This document shows positions 1-13,315 of a stretch of 18,078 nt of DNA, in pieces. Under the pieces are notes generated by a model. That model was not told where the DNA came from. It searched no databases and worked only from the letters and a program-made list of their open reading frames with translations. The DNA is from Thermostichus sp. DRC_bins_24 (GTDB taxonomy: Bacteria; Cyanobacteriota; Cyanobacteriia; Thermostichales; Thermostichaceae), in the NCBI GenBank assembly GCA_039794845.1, contig JAUQVK010000043.1, positions 1 to 18,078 on the forward strand, given 5' to 3'. The position numbers were made by a program, and so were the translations under genes. Every line of letters starts with the position of its first letter. Position 1 is the first letter of the stretch.

Positions 1-528
1 ATTCTGGATCCTGAGGATTTGGGTCTGAATCAACCAGAGACATTTCCCCTGGAGCCATCCCGGATTGCAGAAATTTGGGCAATCCGACAAGCCAACCCAA
101 ATCTGAATATCACTGTCGGATCCCCTGACTACGCTGGAATCATCAGCCCCCGAAGAGAAAAACATATTCTCTATGGTGATGCCAGTGGCGGAGGTCATCT
201 CTCTGGGGTTGGGAACGCTAAGAAGTCTGAGTATCCGCCTAGTTGGACACCCCAAAAGATCCTGGAAACAGCAGCAGACCTTGCCACACGGCCAGGGTTG
301 GGGTGGTGGCAGCAAGACGGGCCTGGACAAGGCACTGTCCACACATCACCTCCGGGCTCAATCTTTACCAATGCAGGAAAACCAGTTCGATATATTGTCA
401 TTGATCCAAGTGGAAGCTTGCCAATCGTAGATGGGGTTACCATTCGGGTTGTTATTGAGCCAGACGGGGAAGGAGTCATTACAGCGGTTCCCATAAGTGG
501 CCCCGGTGTGATTAGAAATCCACCCTAG
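1..528 (+). CDS. C-terminal part of a polymorphic toxin with a bacterial EndoU ribonuclease domain (MafB-CT-like); 5' end lies outside the window
   Basis: Frame 1 is open from base 1 (ILDPEDLGLNQPETFP...). Motifs HILYGD-x2-GGGH, K-S-E-Y-P-x2-W-x3-KI and C-terminal DGVTIRVVIEP...VITAVP match EndoU toxin domains such as the Neisseria MafB EndoU C-terminus as I recall it. Confidence 0.85.
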   Translation: MLDPEDLGLNQPETFPLEPSRIAEIWAIRQANPNLNITVGSPDYAGIISPRREKHILYGDASGGGHLSGVGNAKKSEYPPSWTPQKILETAADLATRPGLGWWQQDGPGQGTVHTSPPGSIFTNAGKPVRYIVIDPSGSLPIVDGVTIRVVIEPDGEGVITAVPISGPGVIRNPP

Positions 529-590
529 TAGGGCGGCACACTTAAGAATGAGGATGAAGGCTTTGTATCGAGCATTATTGGTAAAAAAAT

Positions 591-702
591 GGCTCTCCTG
601 ACTTTATGGTGACAGCATAAGAGTCTCCCGATGTCAACGTCTTACAGGGTAAGGATCCTAGACTTCGCAATGAGCCGCCTCCACCACGTTTCCAGGAGAG
701 CC
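591..702. mobile_element. 112-bp non-autonomous miniature element with ISL3-like ends
   Basis: Terminal IRs GGCTCTCCTG-N6-TGGTG at both ends (591-611 and reverse complement of 682-702), flanked by direct repeat AAAAAAT (584-590 and 703-709). GGCTCT ends and AT-rich target duplications are typical of ISL3. Confidence 0.75.
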
Positions 703-805
703 AAAAAATGGAGCTTAAAGTCTCCACTTGGCTGTATCAACTTTTGGCTTTCACTTAATTGATTGCCAAATCAAGTTCTAAATCTTTGGATTTCGGAGAG
801 ATAAA

Positions 806-1126
806 ATGACCCCTGAAGAAATAGAAATCTACCGAGAAGCAGAAGCAGCATTTCAATATGTGGTCAATCTGATTGAAAGTAGATTTGACCAGATCCCTGA
901 CGATGAAACAAAAAATAGCTTGAGGAGACGCATTGAAGAATTTGTTAAAATATACGTGGAGGATGGAGAAATCGGTATTGCATATGAAAGCTTAGTCAAT
1001 CAATTATATGATCTCTCGATACCTATTTCTAGAGAGATTTATCAAGGAATGGAGAAATACAGTCTTTGCTTTCCTACTCCGCCAGAGGATCATAAGATTC
1101 TCATAGAACTAGTTGTCGACTCCTGA
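806..1126 (+). CDS. Immunity protein, MafI-like (probable cognate of the EndoU toxin)
   Basis: Small acidic 106-aa protein downstream of the toxin, with GGAG RBS at about 796-799. YVEDGEIGIAYESLVNQLYDLSIPISREIY fits the MafI pattern Y-x3-E-x2-A-(F/Y)E-x-L-x2-(Q/Y)-L-x-(D/E)-x2-I. Confidence 0.72.
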   Translation: MTPEEIEIYREAEAAFQYVVNLIESRFDQIPDDETKNSLRRRIEEFVKIYVEDGEIGIAYESLVNQLYDLSIPISREIYQGMEKYSLCFPTPPEDHKILIELVVDS

Positions 1127-1166
1127 GTTTAAGCAGGCAGTTTATTCATGGTTAGCAATTAGCTAA

Positions 1167-1521
1167 ATGCAATCCTTTAGGCTGTCTCCAATCGGGATCC
1201 AGACTAATTCCTCTGATCCCCCCACTGGCATAGGAGACGGGATCCCTGGCCAATTACCCAGATTCGGGGAAGGATTGGATCCTTTTTCGCCTGAAGACTA
1301 TATCCTTTATGCCACCACTGCTGAGGGAGTTCAGATTCGGATCCCTCAAAATCATGGACATTGGGACGGGATCCCTGGGGAATCGGGGTGGCATTCTAAT
1401 CTACCGGAAGTGATTGCCGTAACGGGTGGAGTACCGATCCTGTTTCGTAATGGCTTCCCAGACTTTGGGCCTTGGACACAAATGAGAGTTCCGCTGGAAA
1501 ATATGAAGGGTAATTACACTA
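1167..1521 (+). pseudogene. Orphan toxin cassette fragment (N-terminal half of an HNH/colicin-DNase-type nuclease toxin domain) interrupted by a MITE
   Basis: RIPQNHGHWDGIPGESGW...PILFRNGFPDFGPW...ENMKG resembles the P-x2-NG-x-W-x-G-x2-G-x-S-x-W ... NG-x-PDF segment that precedes HNH-type toxin cores. The ORF-track tail TTALARVFQ... is read-through into the MITE starting at 1522. No His-rich catalytic core remains. Confidence 0.6.
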
Positions 1522-1664
1522 CAGCCCTTGCGCGGGTCTTCCAGGACAGGGCTTGTGCTTCCTGCTCCCGCTCTGCGGGGCCTGGAGGGCTAGCCCCCCA
1601 GAGTGTAGATATCAGTGTAGATCTCAACTTCCATAGTTGTTACACGTGACCGGCACAAGGGCTG
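1522..1664 (+). mobile_element. 143-bp MITE (family A, copy 1), TA target duplication
   Basis: TA|CAGCCCTTGCGC...GCACAAGGGCTG|TA. Homologous to 1896-1999, 6411-6497 and 17479-17538. Confidence 0.85.
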
Positions 1665-1895
1665 TAAGGGAGCCGATTATGTATTGGGCACATCGAAAAA
1701 TCCAGACCTTATTGAGAATAGCAACAATAGAATAGGGCTCCTAGCCTTATCTGATTTGCAACAAGGCAATTAATCGAAGTGCCCTATTGGCCCTTAAAGG
1801 TAATCAAGGCAATACCTGTTAGGCAGTCGAAACATTGTTCAAAGGTTGGCAGGAGCAAGCATTTGCCAATCTTTCTTACAGTTATCATCCAGTTA

Positions 1896-1999
1896 CAGCC
1901 CTTTCGCTAGTCACGTATAACAACTGTGGGAGTTAGGATCCGCTCTCTAGAAGGCTGAGGAAGCACAATCCTTGCTGCAGAAAACCCGCGCAAGGGCTG
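1896..1999 (-). mobile_element. 104-bp MITE (family A, copy 2), inverted relative to copy 1
   Basis: TA|CAGCCCTT...CAAGGGCTG|TA. Its reverse complement matches copy 1 at 34/42 nt on the left end and 36/45 nt on the right end (manual ungapped count). Confidence 0.85.
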
Positions 2000-2000
2000 T

Positions 2001-2333
2001 ATCATCGCTTATCATCGCCAAGTAGAAGTCGGACATGGCCGCATTGAAACCCGGCAGCATTGGAGTGTGAATCTGGAAGACTGCGCTGCACCCGAGGTGC
2101 TGAAGCAGTGGCTGCACCTGGTGGCAATTGGTCGGGTGGATTCGGAGGCAAAAATCCGGGAGAAAACGCGTCGTAACGTACGCTACTATCCGCTTTCGCC
2201 TCCGCTGAGTACGGAAGAATTGGGGCACGTGGTACGCAGTCACCGGCAAGTAGAGAATGGTCTGCACTGGGTGCTGGATGTAACCTTAGAAAGGGCAACG
2301 GCGCAGAGAATCCGGCCATTCTCAGCCGGCTAG
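2001..2333 (+). pseudogene. ISAs1-family transposase internal fragment
   Basis: One frame from 2001 reads ...EVGHGRIETRQ...W...RYY...VRSHRQVENGLHWVLDVT, the ISAs1 signature motifs GHGRIEtR and RxHWxIENxLHWVLDVxF. N-terminus is missing, cut at the MITE. Confidence 0.85.
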
Positions 2334-2357: not shown

Positions 2358-2397
2358 CTTCGTGAAGGGGTCGCAGGTTCAAACCCTGTCATCCCGA
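2358..2397 (+). other. 3' fragment of a tRNA-Pro gene; probable att (island boundary) repeat
   Basis: GAAGGGGTCGCAGGTTCAAACCCTGTCATCCCGA gives a T-arm (GCAGG/TTCAAAC/CCTGT) plus acceptor 3' strand CATCCCG-A, complementary to the CGGGATG 5' end of cyanobacterial tRNA-Pro. No 5' half or anticodon loop. Sits at the accessory/core junction. Confidence 0.8.
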
Positions 2398-2510
2398 TAG
2401 ACAAAGATCTGGCTGTAACAATGGGATCCATTTTTCAGCCCTGCTACCCAGGGCTCCCTCCCCTCTTGGCCGATCTTGTTGGATGAGTTCCCTAGGTAGC
2501 AAACAAGAAT

Positions 2511-4709: not shown

Positions 4710-6242
4710 TCAGGCCCCGACAGCCTCCTTGGCGGCGTACATCACTTCCACACTGATCTCGGCAAAACCGCGTTCTCGGGCAAATTTTTCGGTATTGCGT
4801 TTTACTTTACCGCGCACAAAACCGGGCACTCTGTTCAGTTCCGCTTGGGCTTCCCGTGTCCAGGTGATGTCGGAATCGGCACTTAAGCCCTTGTGGATCA
4901 CTTCTTTGGTGTCGTGGCCGCCGAAGATCTCCAGCAGGTGATCCTCCATGCCCAGGGTGAAGGAGTTGTAGATCAAGTCGGTGATCTGATTGGTGCCTTC
5001 ATAGCCCAGGAAGGGCTTGTAGCCAATCGGGAAATCCTGTACATGAATGGGGGCGGAGATCACCCCACAGGGGGTATGCAGCCGCTTGCCGATGTGACGT
5101 TCCATCTGGGTGCCAAAAATCGCTGCGGGCTCAGCTTGGGCAATGGCATCGCCGACACGGGTGTGATCATCTGTCATCAGGATTTGATCGCAGTATTCCC
5201 CCACCTCCGCCTGGAACCACTCGGCATCGTAGGTGCAGTAGCTGCCCGCCCACACCACGTGAATGCCCATCTCGCGGGCCAAGATTTTGGTGATCGCCGC
5301 CGCATGGGTGGAATCCCCAAAGACCACTGCTTTTTTGCCCGTTAGGTTTTGGCAGTCGATGGAACGGGAGAACCAAGCCGCCTGGGAAACGTGCAGGGTT
5401 TGCTCTTGAATGTAGGGGTCGTAGTTGACCGGGATCCCTTGTTCATTAAGGATCCGCTGCACCTGGCGAATGAAGCGAGCGGTTTCCACCACCCCCATGG
5501 GGCAGATATCAATGAAGGGGGTGCCAAATTGCTCCTGTAGATAGTGAGCCGTCATGGGCCCCAGTTCGCGGTAGGGCACCACATTAAACCAAGCGCGCCC
5601 CAGGTGTTTGAGGTCATGGACGCTGGCCCCTTCGGGGATCACCAGGTTGAGGTCGATCTCCAGATCCCGCAGTAGCACCTTCAGCTCCCGTAGGTCGTGG
5701 GCATGGTGAAACCCGAGGCTGGAGATGCCGAGAATGTTGCAGGAGGGGCGCTCGGTCCTGGGAGGGGAGTCGCTCAGTTCCCCATTCTTACGGGCCTTGC
5801 TGGTGTAGAACTCGACAATTTGCTTGAGGGTGCGATCCGCCGCCTGCAGTTCGTTGACGCGGTAATGGTTCACATCCGCCAGCAACACATCGGCACGACT
5901 CCGCAACCGGGCCTGCTGCACAAAGTGATTCAGATCTTCCTGCAGAATGCTGGAGGTGCAGGTGGGGGTAAGAACGATCAGGTCGGGGTGTTCTTCGCCG
6001 TCTTTGCGGGTGATGTTTTGAATGACCTTTTCGTCGGATCCCCGTGCCAACACGTGCCGGTCAACCACGCTGGTGGTGACGGGGGTAAACTCGCGATCCC
6101 GCTCCAACATGGAACGCATGACATTGAAATAGTCATCTCCGAGGGGAGCATGCATGATGCTATGAACATTTTTGAAGGAGCTTGCCACCCGCAGCGTGCC
6201 GATGTGGGCGGGGCCAGCATACATCCAATAGGCCAACTTCAT
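4710..6242 (-). CDS. chlB: Light-independent protochlorophyllide reductase subunit B
   Basis: Canonical start [35 protein letters not shown] and C-terminal PCP_red domain ([17 protein letters not shown]). True start is the ATG at 6242 (510 aa), not 6386. Confidence 0.97.
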
Positions 6243-8482: not shown

Positions 8483-11400
8483 CTAAAAGCGGGTCTCAAA
8501 CTCCACAGAGATAACATTATTGCCCTCTAGATCGGTACTGGCGCGGGTGAGGGTTTGCTCGTTTAGGCGGTAGCGAGTGCTGTAGCGGGTGGGCTGGAAG
8601 GGATCCGTCAGGTTCCGCTGCACCGAGACCGACATCGTGGGACCGAGGTCCTTGGCCACCTCCAAGGCCAAACCTACGGAGGAGCGATTGGGGGCACGCG
8701 TATCGATCTGGGGAATGGGGCTGAGGCGAATTTCATCCAGGCCGAGGGTATCGCCCAGGGCTTCTTGCAGGTCATTGAGCAGGGCTGTACCTGCCAAACC
8801 CGCCACCCCCACTTCCGCATTCAGACGGGCCAAAGCCGTGCCACCCAAGAGGGCGACGATCTCTTCAGGTGAGCGGCTGGGGCTGCTGGAGAGGGCCAGA
8901 ATGCCATTGCGGGGATCCGCTTCCCCCAACTCGCTGGCCCGCCCATTTACCGTGGCGAAAATATCGATGCTCTGCTGGGATCCCAACACATTACGGTTGT
9001 TGTCAAAGGGGGAAATATCCTGTGGGAAGCGGTAGACCTCGGTGGCTTGGGTTACCAGGCGCAGATCCAAAAGGGGATCCAAGCCATTGTCCAGGTCGAA
9101 GATGGCCCTGTTGGGACGGGAGCGATCCAGGCGAAAGGCAGCAATGGGCAGGGTGACACGGCCTCGCTCCAGATTGATGGTACCCGCCGGGCGTAGGTCT
9201 TGCGGGGTGCCGAAAAGGCGCAGATTGCCAGAGGCGTTGAATTCAAACAGGTTGCGGCGCAGAATTTGAATGCCGGATCCCAGGGCCAGTTCCAGGCCGT
9301 TTAAGCGGGGCCGCCAAGCGGGCGGAGAGGACTCGGGAATCGGTTGCGCTGCTGGGGTAGCGCCATTGCGGGGGGTCACATCCACAACCCCTTCCGAGAC
9401 TTGCAAACGCCCCTCGATCAGGGGTTGCAGCAGCAGACCCGCCACCACCACTTCCCCCTCCAAATGGCCGCTGTAAAGATTGGGGAGCGCCAGGTTGATC
9501 CCCTGCAACTGGAAGGTTAAGGGTTGAAAGCCATGGGCGCCGGAGCCTGTCCCACCCTCGCCCGACTGCAGGGCCCCGCGGGAGTTGATCGGCAGAATGC
9601 CATTGGCCAAAATCGATCCCTGGCTGAATTGTCCGCTCAGCTCCTGCACCTCCAGTTGGTTCAGGTTAAAGGCGATTCGCCCCGTCAGGTCGGTAATCGG
9701 TTCCGGTAGGGCGGCGAAGTTGAGGATCCCGGCGGCCACACTCAGATTTCCCTGCAAACTGGGCTCGCGTAAGGTGCCGCGGATGGCCAGCTCCAGTTGG
9801 CTTTGCCCGCCTTCCCAACGCACTTGATCGGTGAAGAGGTTGATCAATCGCAGGCCGCCATTTTGGGCTTGCAAGGTGAGATCAATCTGGTCGGATTCCG
9901 CCTGTACCTCGGCAAAGGGAAGGGTGTAGGGCACCAGGCCAAACATGCGGATTGGCTCGTCCCCATTGGCCAAGAGGGTGCTGTCGAAGCGCAACTGCCC
10001 TTGGTTGTAGTCGAATTGGCCCCCCACCTCCCGTAGGGGTACCTGGTTGATCTGGGCATTCAACACCGTCAGGGATCCCGTGGCATGGGGATCCCGCAGG
10101 TTGCCCGCCAATTCCACATCTAGGTTCAGGTCACCCCCCAATTCCAGCTCATCCGGCAGAAAGCGATCCACCAAAGCCAGGGGCAACCCTTGAATTTGTA
10201 GGGATCCCGACTGTTCGTTCAGGCCCAAGGTGCCGGAGAAACGGGCCTGCCGTTCCCCACTGCGCAGCAGCAGCGGCTCCAACACCACCGCCCCATCGGC
10301 AAAGCTCCCCGTAGCCGTGAGGCTTTCAACACCAAACTCCTCCGCCTGCCAATTTTGGCCATCCAGTTGAAAGCTGACACTGGGCTGATTGAGGCCGCCG
10401 GCAATGCTGACGCTGGCCTGGAATTCACCCCGCAAACTACTGGGGGGCGGGATCAGAGGATCCATGCGGCTGGCCAGGGTTTCCAGGTGGGTGGCCAAAA
10501 CCTGGGCATAGTACTGTAACTGCTCCACCAGAGGGTGCTCCGGTAAACCTACCGGTTCACTTTCCAACACCGACGCCGGACGCAGGGGCGGCAACCGAAA
10601 GCCACGGCGGGTGAGATCGCTCCATTGCCGCCACTTAAAGGTGGAGATGATGTCTTCCAGGCGGCCTTGGGTGGTGCTGATTTGCAACTCGAGCTGAGGG
10701 ACAGGGGTTTCTCGGCTGGGATCCAAACGCGCCAAGAGAGGGGCTTCTGGCAGCCGCAACGTGCCGCTGGCGGTGTAGGTGCTCTCAAACAGATCCAGTT
10801 GTGCTTGGGTAACGGTGAGGCGATCGGCGCGGTAGTCGAAATCCACTGCAAATCCCTGGGCCTCAATACCTGCTAAGCGCAGATCCGCCACGGCGACCCG
10901 GCCTTGCACAGCCCGATTCTGGAGGTTGACGGCCAGATCGCCGCTGAGGATCCCTTCCAGACTGGCCAAAGGCCCCTCCCCCACCCAGCTGGCCAGCAGG
11001 GGCAAAGGCAGTTGCTGAATTCCAACCTGTAAACTTCCGTTCTCCCGTTGCCCGATGGCTGTGGCTTCTCCCCGTTGCACCCGGAATTGCAGCGGCTGCC
11101 CGCGGGTATCGAGGCTGAGAGCCAGTTGGTCCTGGTCCCCCTGCAGATCCACCTCCGTTCCTTGAGCCGACCAGCGGAAGGGCCCCGCCATATCCGCAAA
11201 GCCGATCCCCCCCAGAGTCAGGCCCTGCAACTGAGCATCCCCCTGTACCCGCAGGTCACCTAGGGATCCCTGCACTCGACCGGAACCCTGCAGAACCCCC
11301 TGCACCAGGGCGGGCACACCGGGAATTTGGGCCAAAGAAACCTGATCCGCCTCCACCGCCAAATCCAGGGATCCCACCTGGAGAGTTTCGGGATCCACCG

Positions 11401-13315
11401 GGATCCGCCCCTGCACCGTGGCCAACCCCAGTGCCTCCGCCCGCTCAATCACCAAGCCGGAGCCATCCCACGCCACCTGTCCTCTGAGGTCGCCTAGAGG
11501 TTGAGAAAGGACTACAGCTCCTTCCGCCCGCAAGGCCCCCAAGAAAGGCAAACCCGATTCGATGATGTCTTCGGTGTTCACCCGCGCCGCCACTTCCCCC
11601 GAGAGGGATCCCGCCAACTCCGGGTTAAAGAAAGACAAAGGTAAGTTTTGCGGAGCCACCTGGGCCTGAATTTGCCCCTCCGCCCACCGCCCAGACAGCG
11701 CCGCCCGTCCCTCCCCCAGCGTCAAGACGGCCTGCGGGATCTCCACCACCAAGCCGCGGGTATCCGGCAGTGCTTCCAGGGCAGGCCCAATTTGCACTTC
11801 CCCAGTACCGCCGATTTCTCCCCCAGTGGCCTCCCAAGTCCCTTGAATCCGGGGCTGGGATCCTGTCAGAGCCACCTCCACCTGTCCAGAAACCTGCCCC
11901 ACGGAGCGTGGCAAGCTGCCCCCGTACCAGCCCACCACCTGCTCGGCATTGGCCCCACGCACCTGCAACTGAAACAAACCCTCTAAGGGGGAACCGAGTT
12001 GAAGTTGGCCGGAACCTTGAATGCGTCCGCCGGCTGCCGCTAGGTCAATACGCTCAAAGGCTAAGGTTTGGTTGGCGAAGCGAAAGTCCAGGCTGTACTG
12101 GGACAAAGGGATCCGATCCACCCGTCCAGGAGCCCGCGCCTGCAACTGACCCCGGATTTCCGGCTGCGTCAGTGCCCCCCCCACCGTTAGGGATCCCCCC
12201 AACACCGCCTCCACATCCACAGGCAGGTCAAAATCAAAAGTTTGTTGCACCTGCGCCAAGCTGGCCTGGGCAATTTCTGCCTGCAAATCGAACCCCTCTG
12301 CACCGAAGCGAATCGGGCCGTTCAGATCCCGAAAGGGCAGTTGACCAAAACGACCGCTCACCTGCTCCAGATTCAGTTCTTGCACAGTAAACCGAACCGA
12401 ACCGCTCACCTCCTCAAAAGGATGGGGCAACATCTCCAGCCCAATACGGGCCTGTTGTAGCTGCGCCTGACCCGTCAGTTGCAAAGGTTGATCCCGACTC
12501 CAGGCCACCTGTAAATTCAGGCCCGCATCTCCCTGCAAATCCGTGAGGGGCACAGCCGGCAAAAGGCTGGGCAACAGATCCAGGGGCACACTCCGAGAGG
12601 AAAGGGCCACCGAACCGGAAGCCTGGGCAAAATCGGCTACACCCCTAAGGCGCACCGGATGGCCACCCGGAGTATCCGGTGATTGTAATCTGGCGGAAAG
12701 TTGGAAACTGGCTCGCCCACCTGAGTGTTCCGCTGCCGCCTGCGGCTCCCCGGCTAACCAAATCTGGGTCTGGGCCTGCAGTTGATCAAACTGGCGACGC
12801 TCCCCCACCAACGGGATGGCCGTCAGGGATCCCCGCCGCAGATGAACATTCAACCCCTGAATCGGCAGGGATCCCTCCCCTTCCGAAGCCGGCAATTGAA
12901 ACTGAATATCCGCCCAACCGCGATCGAGGGTTTCCATCACCAGCAACTGCGGTTGATCGAGGGTGAGGTTAAGCACCCATTCCCCTGTTTGGATCCACGT
13001 CCACAGATCAGGGCTGATGTCGATAGAGCCGATGGTGGCCAAATGTTCGATGCGGCTCTCCCCCAAGCTCACCTGCCAAGGAGCAAGAAAGGTCACTTCC
13101 CCCAACTCCACCCGCCGCCGCAGCGCCTGAGAGAGAGTTTCCTCCACCTGAGGGATCACCTGCCCCTGGATATAAGCCCTGGCACCCCAAACCGCTCCAA
13201 AAGAGGCCGCCGTCAGGCCGAGGCCCAACCCTGCCCCCACCCAAGTTAGGTTGAGTCGTCGCTGCTGCACGTCTTTATCCCAGTGATCTTCACCCAACGG
13301 CTTACCCCTCCTCAC
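8483..13315 (-). CDS. tamB: TamB/DUF490 translocation and assembly module protein
   Basis: 1610 aa, N-terminal membrane anchor, long Gly/Leu-rich beta repeats, C-terminal LSSSPSRSPEEIVALLGG...GLDEIRL...EFETRF typical of cyanobacterial DUF490 proteins. Confidence 0.88.
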   Translation of the reverse strand: MRRGKPLGEDHWDKDVQQRRLNLTWVGAGLGLGLTAASFGAVWGARAYIQGQVIPQVEETLSQALRRRVELGEVTFLAPWQVSLGESRIEHLATIGSIDISPDLWTWIQTGEWVLNLTLDQPQLLVMETLDRGWADIQFQLPASEGEGSLPIQGLNVHLRRGSLTAIPLVGERRQFDQLQAQTQIWLAGEPQAAAEHSGGRASFQLSARLQSPDTPGGHPVRLRGVADFAQASGSVALSSRSVPLDLLPSLLPAVPLTDLQGDAGLNLQVAWSRDQPLQLTGQAQLQQARIGLEMLPHPFEEVSGSVRFTVQELNLEQVSGRFGQLPFRDLNGPIRFGAEGFDLQAEIAQASLAQVQQTFDFDLPVDVEAVLGGSLTVGGALTQPEIRGQLQARAPGRVDRIPLSQYSLDFRFANQTLAFERIDLAAAGGRIQGSGQLQLGSPLEGLFQLQVRGANAEQVVGWYGGSLPRSVGQVSGQVEVALTGSQPRIQGTWEATGGEIGGTGEVQIGPALEALPDTRGLVVEIPQAVLTLGEGRAALSGRWAEGQIQAQVAPQNLPLSFFNPELAGSLSGEVAARVNTEDIIESGLPFLGALRAEGAVVLSQPLGDLRGQVAWDGSGLVIERAEALGLATVQGRIPVDPETLQVGSLDLAVEADQVSLAQIPGVPALVQGVLQGSGRVQGSLGDLRVQGDAQLQGLTLGGIGFADMAGPFRWSAQGTEVDLQGDQDQLALSLDTRGQPLQFRVQRGEATAIGQRENGSLQVGIQQLPLPLLASWVGEGPLASLEGILSGDLAVNLQNRAVQGRVAVADLRLAGIEAQGFAVDFDYRADRLTVTQAQLDLFESTYTASGTLRLPEAPLLARLDPSRETPVPQLELQISTTQGRLEDIISTFKWRQWSDLTRRGFRLPPLRPASVLESEPVGLPEHPLVEQLQYYAQVLATHLETLASRMDPLIPPPSSLRGEFQASVSIAGGLNQPSVSFQLDGQNWQAEEFGVESLTATGSFADGAVVLEPLLLRSGERQARFSGTLGLNEQSGSLQIQGLPLALVDRFLPDELELGGDLNLDVELAGNLRDPHATGSLTVLNAQINQVPLREVGGQFDYNQGQLRFDSTLLANGDEPIRMFGLVPYTLPFAEVQAESDQIDLTLQAQNGGLRLINLFTDQVRWEGGQSQLELAIRGTLREPSLQGNLSVAAGILNFAALPEPITDLTGRIAFNLNQLEVQELSGQFSQGSILANGILPINSRGALQSGEGGTGSGAHGFQPLTFQLQGINLALPNLYSGHLEGEVVVAGLLLQPLIEGRLQVSEGVVDVTPRNGATPAAQPIPESSPPAWRPRLNGLELALGSGIQILRRNLFEFNASGNLRLFGTPQDLRPAGTINLERGRVTLPIAAFRLDRSRPNRAIFDLDNGLDPLLDLRLVTQATEVYRFPQDISPFDNNRNVLGSQQSIDIFATVNGRASELGEADPRNGILALSSSPSRSPEEIVALLGGTALARLNAEVGVAGLAGTALLNDLQEALGDTLGLDEIRLSPIPQIDTRAPNRSSVGLALEVAKDLGPTMSVSVQRNLTDPFQPTRYSTRYRLNEQTLTRASTDLEGNNVISVEFETRF

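Follow-up and report, generated by a model that had tools for sequence, protein, structure and literature searches.

A polymorphic toxin locus with an EndoU-type tip and a probable lipoprotein-type carrier in a hot-spring cyanobacterium

Three co-oriented frames at a contig end

The DNA analyzed here, hereafter called the window, spans positions 1 to 18,078 of contig C43 in the genome of Thermostichus sp. DRC_bins_24 (3.50 Mb, 115 contigs, 99.93% complete), so that the toxin locus considered in the following sits at a contig end. Bases 1 to 1649 hold three co-oriented open reading frames (ORFs): ORF1, with 175 codons, open at its 5' end and running to position 528; ORF2, with 106 codons (806 to 1126); and ORF3, with 160 codons (1167 to 1649). 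We read positions 1 to 2400 as probably the variable end of a polymorphic toxin locus, whose ORF1 gene most likely begins on another contig, within a carrier of the lipoprotein type. All three features set out in a preliminary description of this DNA (an EndoU-type toxin C terminus, a small acidic gene and an orphan toxin-like frame) were recovered in their places.

The 3' end of the toxin gene occupies positions 1 to 528 on the plus strand, with the stop codon at 526 to 528. Bases 1 to 21 are the end of the carrier junction (ILDPEDL), residues 1 to 19 of ORF1 form a linker, and residues from about 20 to 175 make up an EndoU-family RNase domain with H55, H66 and K75. A HMMER search of 1.84 billion representatives returned 922 relatives at E ≤ 1e-3, 171 of them at E ≤ 1e-10, and 53 of the 150 relatives listed, chosen as the closest and the long ones, were scanned for PF14436 (EndoU_bacteria). 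The family was present in all 53 and reached its cut-off in 52, with P0012 scoring 20.5 and the near relatives P0004 and P0005 scoring 28.9 and 25.4; in 50 of the 53, the EndoU domain ended at most 12 residues from the C terminus. The N termini in this set were carriers of classic polymorphic toxins and featured RHS repeats (11 proteins), DUF637, PT-VENN or haemagglutinin domains (8), PT-TG (6) and eCIS_core (1), as well as LysM, PG_binding, Dockerin and DUF4347. Residues H55, H66, K75, T96 and T161 are each at least 90% conserved in an alignment of 73 sequences, and every nearly invariant residue is kept in ORF1 of this genome; we take the lysine to be among the catalytic positions. The best relative, P0001, is a toxin of 372 amino acids from Synechococcus sp. 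Nb3U1 (genome G004) that contains the ORF1 homologue at 73% identity. A catalytic role of conserved EndoU positions is described by Zhang et al. (2012; PMC3482391).

The AlphaFold model of ORF1 (predicted local distance difference test [pLDDT], 91.8; predicted template modeling score [pTM], 0.85) is of high confidence and weak only at residues 1 to 20. Its nearest solved folds were the CdiA C-terminal (CdiA-CT) RNase toxins 6cp9_A (5.9 / 3.2 / 98), 8ey4_A (5.1), 7m5f_C (4.9) and 5e3e_B (4.5), the calcium-activated EndoU 9ftw_B (4.4), XendoU (2c1w_A; 4.1), Nsp15 (5yvd_B; 3.9) and the CdiA-CT of STEC_O31 (5hkq_A; 3.8, with 24% identity over 88 aligned residues). Foldseek with the same model against the PDB gave nothing at E ≤ 1e-3, the top weak row being XendoU, and sequence searches of the PDB with ORF1, ORF2 or the A4 profile gave nothing significant. 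The proposal of an EndoU tip with intact His/His/Lys motifs is supported by a PF14436 match lying just under the cut-off and backed by the relatives, the conserved residues and the fold comparison. Because rows of the RelE, BrnT and ParE types also occur among the weak structural neighbors of the model, and BECR-fold RNases are found in toxin-antitoxin pairs as well, the locus might be an intracellular toxin-antitoxin or abortive-infection module and not an exported weapon. We consider this very improbable, however, given that in relatives the toxin domain forms one reading frame with a carrier that bears a signal, that relatives sit at the C termini of Rhs, CdiA-type, PT-TG and eCIS proteins, and that the genes are ordered toxin first, immunity second, with swappable tips.

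ORF2, the candidate for a MafI-like immunity gene (806 to 1126, plus strand, 106 amino acids), lies 277 nucleotides (nt) beyond the toxin stop on the same strand, with a GGAG motif upstream of its ATG. The encoded protein is acidic (isoelectric point, 4.30; 23 D+E versus 10 K+R), and the gene, with a GC content of 0.377, is poorer in GC than the genome (0.569) and the carrier (0.588). The ESM Atlas model of ORF2 (pTM, 0.67) resembles two clusters named MafI, with template modeling scores of 0.71/0.79 and 0.72/0.84 (query/target), both sides being predicted structures and the names automatic. Of the toxin/immunity pair put forward in the preliminary description, the match to the MafI family and the likeness of the predicted folds speak in favor, whereas the score against the MafI model NF033691 remains below its cut-off. 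A pairing of EndoU and MafI-like proteins has a precedent, since in Neisseria an EndoU tip of MafB is followed by a mafI immunity gene. Some weaker matches were dismissed as chance: one of ORF2 to CRISPR_Cse2 (E, 0.001; 19.9 bits; cut-off, 24.6) and, in searches of other genomes, those in G099, G048, G354, G376 and G064 (E, 0.001 to 0.009), the G099 match being a spurious frame. The spacer between toxin and ORF2 contains a small dispersed repeat (590 to 703), copies of which are 88 to 89% identical on contigs C27 and C12.

ORF3 is composite: residues 1 to 118 (nt 1167 to 1522, plus strand) are toxin-derived, and residues 119 to 160 are read out of a miniature inverted-repeat transposable element (MITE). 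The toxin-derived part is a truncated and displaced tip: of a WHH-type HNH/EndoVII nuclease domain it retains the N-terminal half, and its homology to the carrier-fused form begins at position 1263. Its residues 48 to 116 match the front half of the L023 toxin (43% identity; E, 2e-19) from another cyanobacterium (genome G333), which carries PF14414 WHH and Colicin-DNase, lies after an Rhs/Hint region and is followed by a SUKH immunity gene. This G333 locus (contig C12, 361 to 2523) is in itself a textbook arrangement of Rhs core end, Hint domain, WHH/Colicin-DNase tip and SUKH immunity gene. A lead in the same direction came from the ESM Atlas, where ORF3 pointed to an HNH/EndoVII polymorphic toxin cluster with a score of 0.90. 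ORF3 had no Pfam match, and its likeness to the L023 toxin ends at residue 110 of that toxin, before the WHH region at 149 to 180; a word-index search gave no longer relatives, and neither the catalytic 3' half nor an immunity gene was found in this genome with these queries. ORF3 is a dead tip, since the MITE at about position 1520 cuts it off. In contigs of the metagenome runs X2 and X3, the same tip continues past 1522 in frame and encodes DF..AD as in L023, and the MITE insertion is therefore specific to the lineage of the window. The orphan nuclease cassette of the preliminary description is thus confirmed as a co-oriented tip that has no delivery domain, but it is truncated by the MITE and toxin-derived only to about residue 118, and positions 1650 to 1773, the rest of the span given in that description, are repeat DNA.

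A genus-restricted carrier with differing tips behind one junction

Residues 50 to 205 of P0001, the upstream continuation of its tip, are 82% identical to an ORF on contig C29 of the window's own genome. This C29 ORF (4588 to 5940) has 451 open codons and runs off the contig; its likely start is a GTG after AAGAGG, and its signal reads KRNPWLHLKRLIPAVGVVLA-SC, with a lipobox Cys. The carrier so defined consists of a lipoprotein signal, about 140 residues rich in Pro, Ser and Gly (residues 39 to 175 of the C29 carrier are 27% Pro), a hydrophobic stretch some 55 residues long (around residues 185 to 235) and a conserved pretoxin region up to the junction TTILDPxD, which in the C29 copy ends in PTLPGTTILDPGD. 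By reading of the sequences, the lipobox is LASC in C29 and G008 and LVGC in P0003, in each case after a basic n-region and a hydrophobic core. A profile built from six carrier sequences found the carrier in 3 of 401 cyanobacterial genomes, all of them belonging to the window's genus (g1), of which 3 of 12 genomes carry it.

A standard Rhs/CdiA N terminus was looked for in the carrier, and none was found: there is no RHS, no haemagglutinin/DUF637/VENN and no MafB N-terminal domain. The C29 ORF matches no Pfam family at E ≤ 5 and no NCBIfam family, P0003 likewise has none, and P0001 matches EndoU alone. The earlier suggestion of an uncharacterized carrier therefore holds to the extent that the protein is not Rhs, CdiA or MafB and belongs to none of these families, but as to a new type of secretion it probably does not, given that export is probably by ordinary Sec/lipoprotein processing, because the carrier starts with a lipoprotein signal. 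The new part would then be the escort region. The toxin and immunity domains are of known families, and the logic of the system is that of polymorphic toxins, while the carrier is undescribed in the libraries searched; for this reason, we regard the carrier as what is new here.

The Nb3U1 copies of this family show further peculiarities. In P0001, the positions G59 and G65, both at least 90% conserved, are substituted. On contig C3 of Nb3U1 (9143 to 10300, minus strand), the annotated N terminus of P0001 is in a different frame from the lipoprotein signal, which survives at 10104 to 10217, and the Pro-rich region is shorter than that of C29 by about 330 nt. Because of the two glycine substitutions and the loss of the lipoprotein-signal frame, the Nb3U1 toxin copy may be inactive.

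Aligned with one another (alignment A1), the carrier sequences are nearly identical up to TTILDPxD and then continue into at least three unrelated tails. EndoU tips follow the junction in the window, P0001 and P0005; a WHH-type tip is found in P0003 and ORF3, and C29 has a tip that belongs to no known family. G008 ends in a short tail, and contig C1 of Nb3U1 holds a remnant. Direct fusions to the carrier exist for two of the types, with EndoU in P0001 and P0005 and with the ORF3-type tip in P0003. A contig of run X3 joins window position 21 to position 1263 across 18 letters (coding for PTGSPG), and three X2 records place the C29-type junction immediately before 1263; the X2 loose ends are one letter off C29:5549-5578 and give independent support to the X3 joint. 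The swappable tips foreseen in the preliminary description are therefore well founded, both in same-genus carriers with different C termini and in contigs of two hot-spring runs that attach the junction directly to an ORF3-type tip. Judged from the sequences, the locus displays the features of polymorphic toxins in the sense of Zhang et al. (2012), namely, a conserved N-terminal part, unrelated tips and a sharp junction, together with a stand-alone tip cassette nearby.

The tip behind the C29 junction (5560 to 5942) is different from those of the window and ends in ...IPDVIGVRTDGRVDA at the contig end; it may resemble restriction-endonuclease-fold toxins. Neither its continuation nor an immunity gene for it was found. 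A 180-codon open frame at the end of contig C30 of the window's genome (10300 to 11079, minus strand) is 60% identical in its last 50 residues to the start of this C29 tip. After it comes, in another frame, a carrier piece of 36 nt with 92% identity, and we read the whole as a further scrambled fragment of the toxin family.

Probable linkage of the carrier to the window, and possible mobility and decay

How the EndoU tip of the window is joined to a carrier can be approached from the contig ends. The first 21 nt of contig C43 are, in frame and with one mismatch, the end of the stretch that it shares with C29, and Logan contigs extend 9 to 71 nt past window base 1. On the other side, contig C41 breaks off 50 nt past the point where an esterase gene starts, and its end corresponds to C29:4300-4441, the last 142 nt being 97% identical and the last 102 nt 100% identical. 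In Nb3U1, the esterase is the divergent neighbor of the carrier-EndoU gene. A single assembled middle thus has two flanks on its left and two on its right, as expected if a repeat of about 1.26 kb, present twice, was collapsed in assembly. The contig ends and the Nb3U1 synteny therefore suggest that window base 1 is preceded by another carrier copy, lost in this collapse, and we favor the order C41, carrier copy, C43, although the pairing of a given upstream flank with a given tip is not proven. Synteny gave no placement of C29 beside speD/speE, as in Nb3U1: in the window's genome, speD/speE lie midcontig on C115 beside gmk. The toxin module at the surE site carries an antisense fragment of the 5' end of the esterase gene next to the other locus (stretches involved: C29, 4300 to 4441; the end of C41; L019, 9751 to 10416). 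As this fragment is present at the surE site both in this genome and in Nb3U1, the module has been copied between the two sites as a segment.

Alternatively, ORF1 could itself be an orphan cassette: the genome would then have one carrier gene, that of C29 with its other tip, and the EndoU tip, the immunity gene and the WHH fragment would form a silent downstream array, expressed only after recombination. The single assembled carrier copy fits this idea, as does the fact that C29 runs off the contig inside another tip, so that something must follow; moreover, P0004 (167 amino acids) has its start directly behind the junction, as a cassette standing alone would, and the window shares just 21 nt with C29. 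We nevertheless judge it unlikely, since the perfect identity of the last 102 nt of C41 to C29 adds another left flank, for which there must be a partner on the right, the same esterase flank adjoins a carrier-EndoU fusion in Nb3U1, P0001 and P0005 are direct fusions, and the Logan contigs continue 9 to 71 nt beyond window base 1.

Several observations weigh against reading the window as the end of a functional, carrier-borne toxin gene with its immunity gene. With regard to the linkage, one carrier copy is assembled in this genome, so that the connection to window base 1 is inferred, and the X3 joint is a single contig with its 21-letter side at 90% likeness, of a class that calls for caution. 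With regard to the families, ORF1 reaches PF14436 at an E value of 2.8e-5 and 24.9 bits, 0.4 bits short of the cut-off of 25.3, and a PF14436 search of the whole genome at E ≤ 0.001 did not return ORF1, the controls of that search being silent too. ORF2 matches NF033691 (MafI) at an E value of 9.2e-7 and 28.6 bits, over profile positions 13 to 60 of 67, and does not reach the cut-off of 31; it has no reliable relatives in the 400 other cyanobacterial genomes, and in the Nb3U1 genome the ORF2 query found no similar gene after the toxin homologue or elsewhere. With regard to the carrier, the structure model, based on six sequences, is unusable (pLDDT, 42.7; pTM, 0.19), no fold supports a delivery mechanism, and there are broken copies, with a TAG in G008, the remnant on contig C1 of Nb3U1 and, on its contig C3, a lipoprotein signal shifted out of the reading frame.

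Such broken copies lead to the question of decay, which is also raised by the repeats of the region. The MITE in the ORF3 tip (1520 to 1666, plus strand, 147 bp) has 19-nt terminal inverted repeats starting with TACAGCCCTTGCGC; its arms (I3) are 89% complementary, and its fold z is -3.47. The TACAGCCCTTGCGC family has dozens of copies in the genome, accounts for most of the 46 matches and gives ORF-like tails in genes. It is followed by a second dispersed repeat family (1686 to 1784), with copies 87 to 96% identical on C115, C72, C86 and other contigs, and by an inverted, shorter second copy of the MITE (1893 to 2001, minus strand; arms I1, I2 and I5). Further downstream lie a fragment of an ISAs1-family transposase gene (2067 to 2333, plus strand; NF033564; E, 2.2e-16; profile positions 223 to 289 of 314) and a 3' fragment of a tRNA-Pro gene (2364 to 2398, plus strand). 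This fragment of 35 nt, which matches the 3' terminus of the C6 gene tRNA-Pro-CGG at 94% identity, stands directly after the ISAs1 fragment and may be the remnant of an old attachment site.

These elements could mean that the locus is a decaying relic, with a toxin no longer exported or active, a region overrun by MITEs and insertion sequence fragments, and no present role in competition. ORF3 is indeed destroyed by a MITE, a MITE-like repeat separates toxin and immunity gene, the ISAs1 fragment follows, the carrier copies in Nb3U1 and G008 are broken, and the Nb3U1 toxin has changed G59 and G65 and comes without an immunity gene. We regard this explanation as quite unlikely: ORF1 keeps all nearly invariant residues, including H55, H66 and K75, ORF2 is undamaged and preceded by a ribosome-binding motif, no stop interrupts the 451 codons of the C29 carrier frame, whose lipobox is preserved, and the metagenome runs contain the tips in abundance and in variable form. 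The preliminary description had also placed the system on a mobile island. MITEs, the ISAs1 fragment, the tRNA-Pro 3' fragment and tips and ORF2 lower in GC than the genome agree with this view, but neither an integrase nor a second att copy was seen, and the island is weakly supported.

The remainder of the window holds housekeeping genes (RarA/MgsA, ChlB, a methyltransferase, TamB, STAS, a tetrapyrrole methylase, GNAT and a peroxiredoxin). The TamB-family protein (1610 amino acids; 8483 to 13315, minus strand) lies 6 kb from the toxin locus. Scans for promoters and terminators did no better than shuffled sequence (3 promoter-like sites versus a mean of 2.8; 1 terminator-like site versus a mean of 2.9), Rfam gave no match on positions 1 to 2600 at E ≤ 0.1, and ARAGORN found no tRNA in the window. 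The assignment to a hot-spring cyanobacterium is supported, the best relative coming from Nb3U1, ChlB lying in the window, and three metagenome runs, all labeled hot springs metagenome, containing the stretch; these runs belong to one study and may be the source sample. Nb3U1 is an isolate from a mat of Nakabusa Hot Spring (PMC9119104). Scans of public collections for the context of the locus, with ORF1 or the carrier alignment A2 on genome contigs and with A2 or the EndoU alignment A3 on metagenome contigs, returned nothing, and these collections may leave out records near this genome.

Proposed mode of action and comparison with known systems

Taken as the end of a lipoprotein-borne toxin gene, the locus suggests the following course of events. 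Sec would export the toxin protein, which would then receive its lipid and be exposed in the envelope of the cell. Upon contact with a related cell, its C-terminal EndoU-type RNase would enter the target cytoplasm and cut RNA, while the producer would be guarded by the acidic MafI-like protein (806 to 1126) binding the toxin. Recombination at the junction might bring in new modules of tip plus immunity gene, and the older WHH-type DNase tip (1167 to 1522) would have been moved downstream, losing its carrier, before the MITE destroyed it. Sec export and lipidation are predicted from the signal and established lipoprotein biogenesis, whereas envelope display, contact-dependent entry, RNA cleavage and neutralization by ORF2 are proposed by analogy with the MafB/MafI and SitA toxins. 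TssC was not found in this genome by a search whose positive control worked, and a whole-genome search for ShlB (PF03865) was uninformative, its controls being silent.

It is tempting to speculate further that the carrier represents a new delivery class, in which a lipid anchor, a Pro-rich stalk and a hydrophobic hairpin carry nuclease tips into a neighboring cyanobacterial cell, with transfer by membrane contact or vesicles and without type V, VI or VII secretion or the myxobacterial TraAB. We see this as possible but doubtful; if true, it would amount to a kin-discrimination system for hot-spring cyanobacteria. Mats of the hot-spring Synechococcus type are a classic model for the coexistence of close ecotypes, and weapons between their strains are hardly described: we found no literature on toxin-immunity pairs in hot-spring Synechococcus, and PMC11456837 does not contain the word toxin. 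A genus-restricted carrier with tips that differ between co-occurring strains would offer a concrete means of studying how strains within a mat antagonize one another and recognize kin. In a genome in which no TssC (type VI secretion) was found, it would also be the second example, after SitA of myxobacteria, of polymorphic nucleases borne by lipoproteins.

Among the known systems, solved CdiA toxins are close at the level of the tip. The CdiA-CT EndoU of Escherichia coli STEC_O31 with its CdiI (5hkq) has the top identity among the nearest solved folds to the ORF1 model and likewise combines a tip RNase with a cognate immunity gene, and further CdiA-CT RNases (6cp9, 8ey4, 7m5f and 5e3e) are among the other nearest folds. 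For ORF3, the nearest system is the Rhs-linked WHH nuclease with SUKH immunity in G333, with whose N-terminal half residues 48 to 116 of ORF3 agree; in contrast to that toxin, ORF3 has no WHH catalytic half and no immunity gene after it, and its carrier-fused form uses the lipoprotein carrier in place of Rhs/Hint. The APD1/APD2 effectors of Amoebophilus are described as having a signal peptide with lipobox, a conserved N-terminal domain and highly polymorphic C termini (PMC3482391). By this description alone, they share the lipobox signal, the conserved N terminus and the polymorphic C termini with the present carrier; unlike it, they are predicted in the same text to act on a eukaryotic host.

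The closest overall parallels are with MafB and SitA. According to PMC4287609, MafB of Neisseria starts with a Sec signal and an N-terminal domain confined to its genus, after which a short, conserved junction motif leads into a toxic C terminus that varies; one of its tips is an EndoU RNase, and the mafI immunity gene stands immediately downstream, followed by tip-only cassettes. The locus, as reconstructed here, has the same sequence of elements, with a genus-restricted N-terminal part, a junction, an EndoU tip, an immunity gene candidate and a tip-only cassette, and ORF2 resembles MafI. It differs from MafB in that the carrier has no DUF1020/MafB_N or other Pfam family, in that its signal is of the lipobox lipoprotein kind and not type I as in MafB (PMC4287609), and in that there is no mafA-like neighbor, the upstream genes being surE/gap or the esterase and the host a cyanobacterium. 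SitA toxins of myxobacteria, as far as the consulted part of PMC8546572 describes them, have a lipoprotein signal, family-defining N-terminal escort domains and C-terminal nucleases active in the cytoplasm; an adjacent gene encodes the immunity protein, likewise cytoplasmic, and delivery requires outer-membrane exchange by TraA/TraB. Judged by this description alone, the Pro-rich spacer and the hydrophobic hairpin set our carrier apart from SitA. What the carrier shares with SitA/SitI is a lipoprotein signal with a lipobox Cys (again from reading the sequences), an N-terminal escort region and polymorphic nuclease tips.

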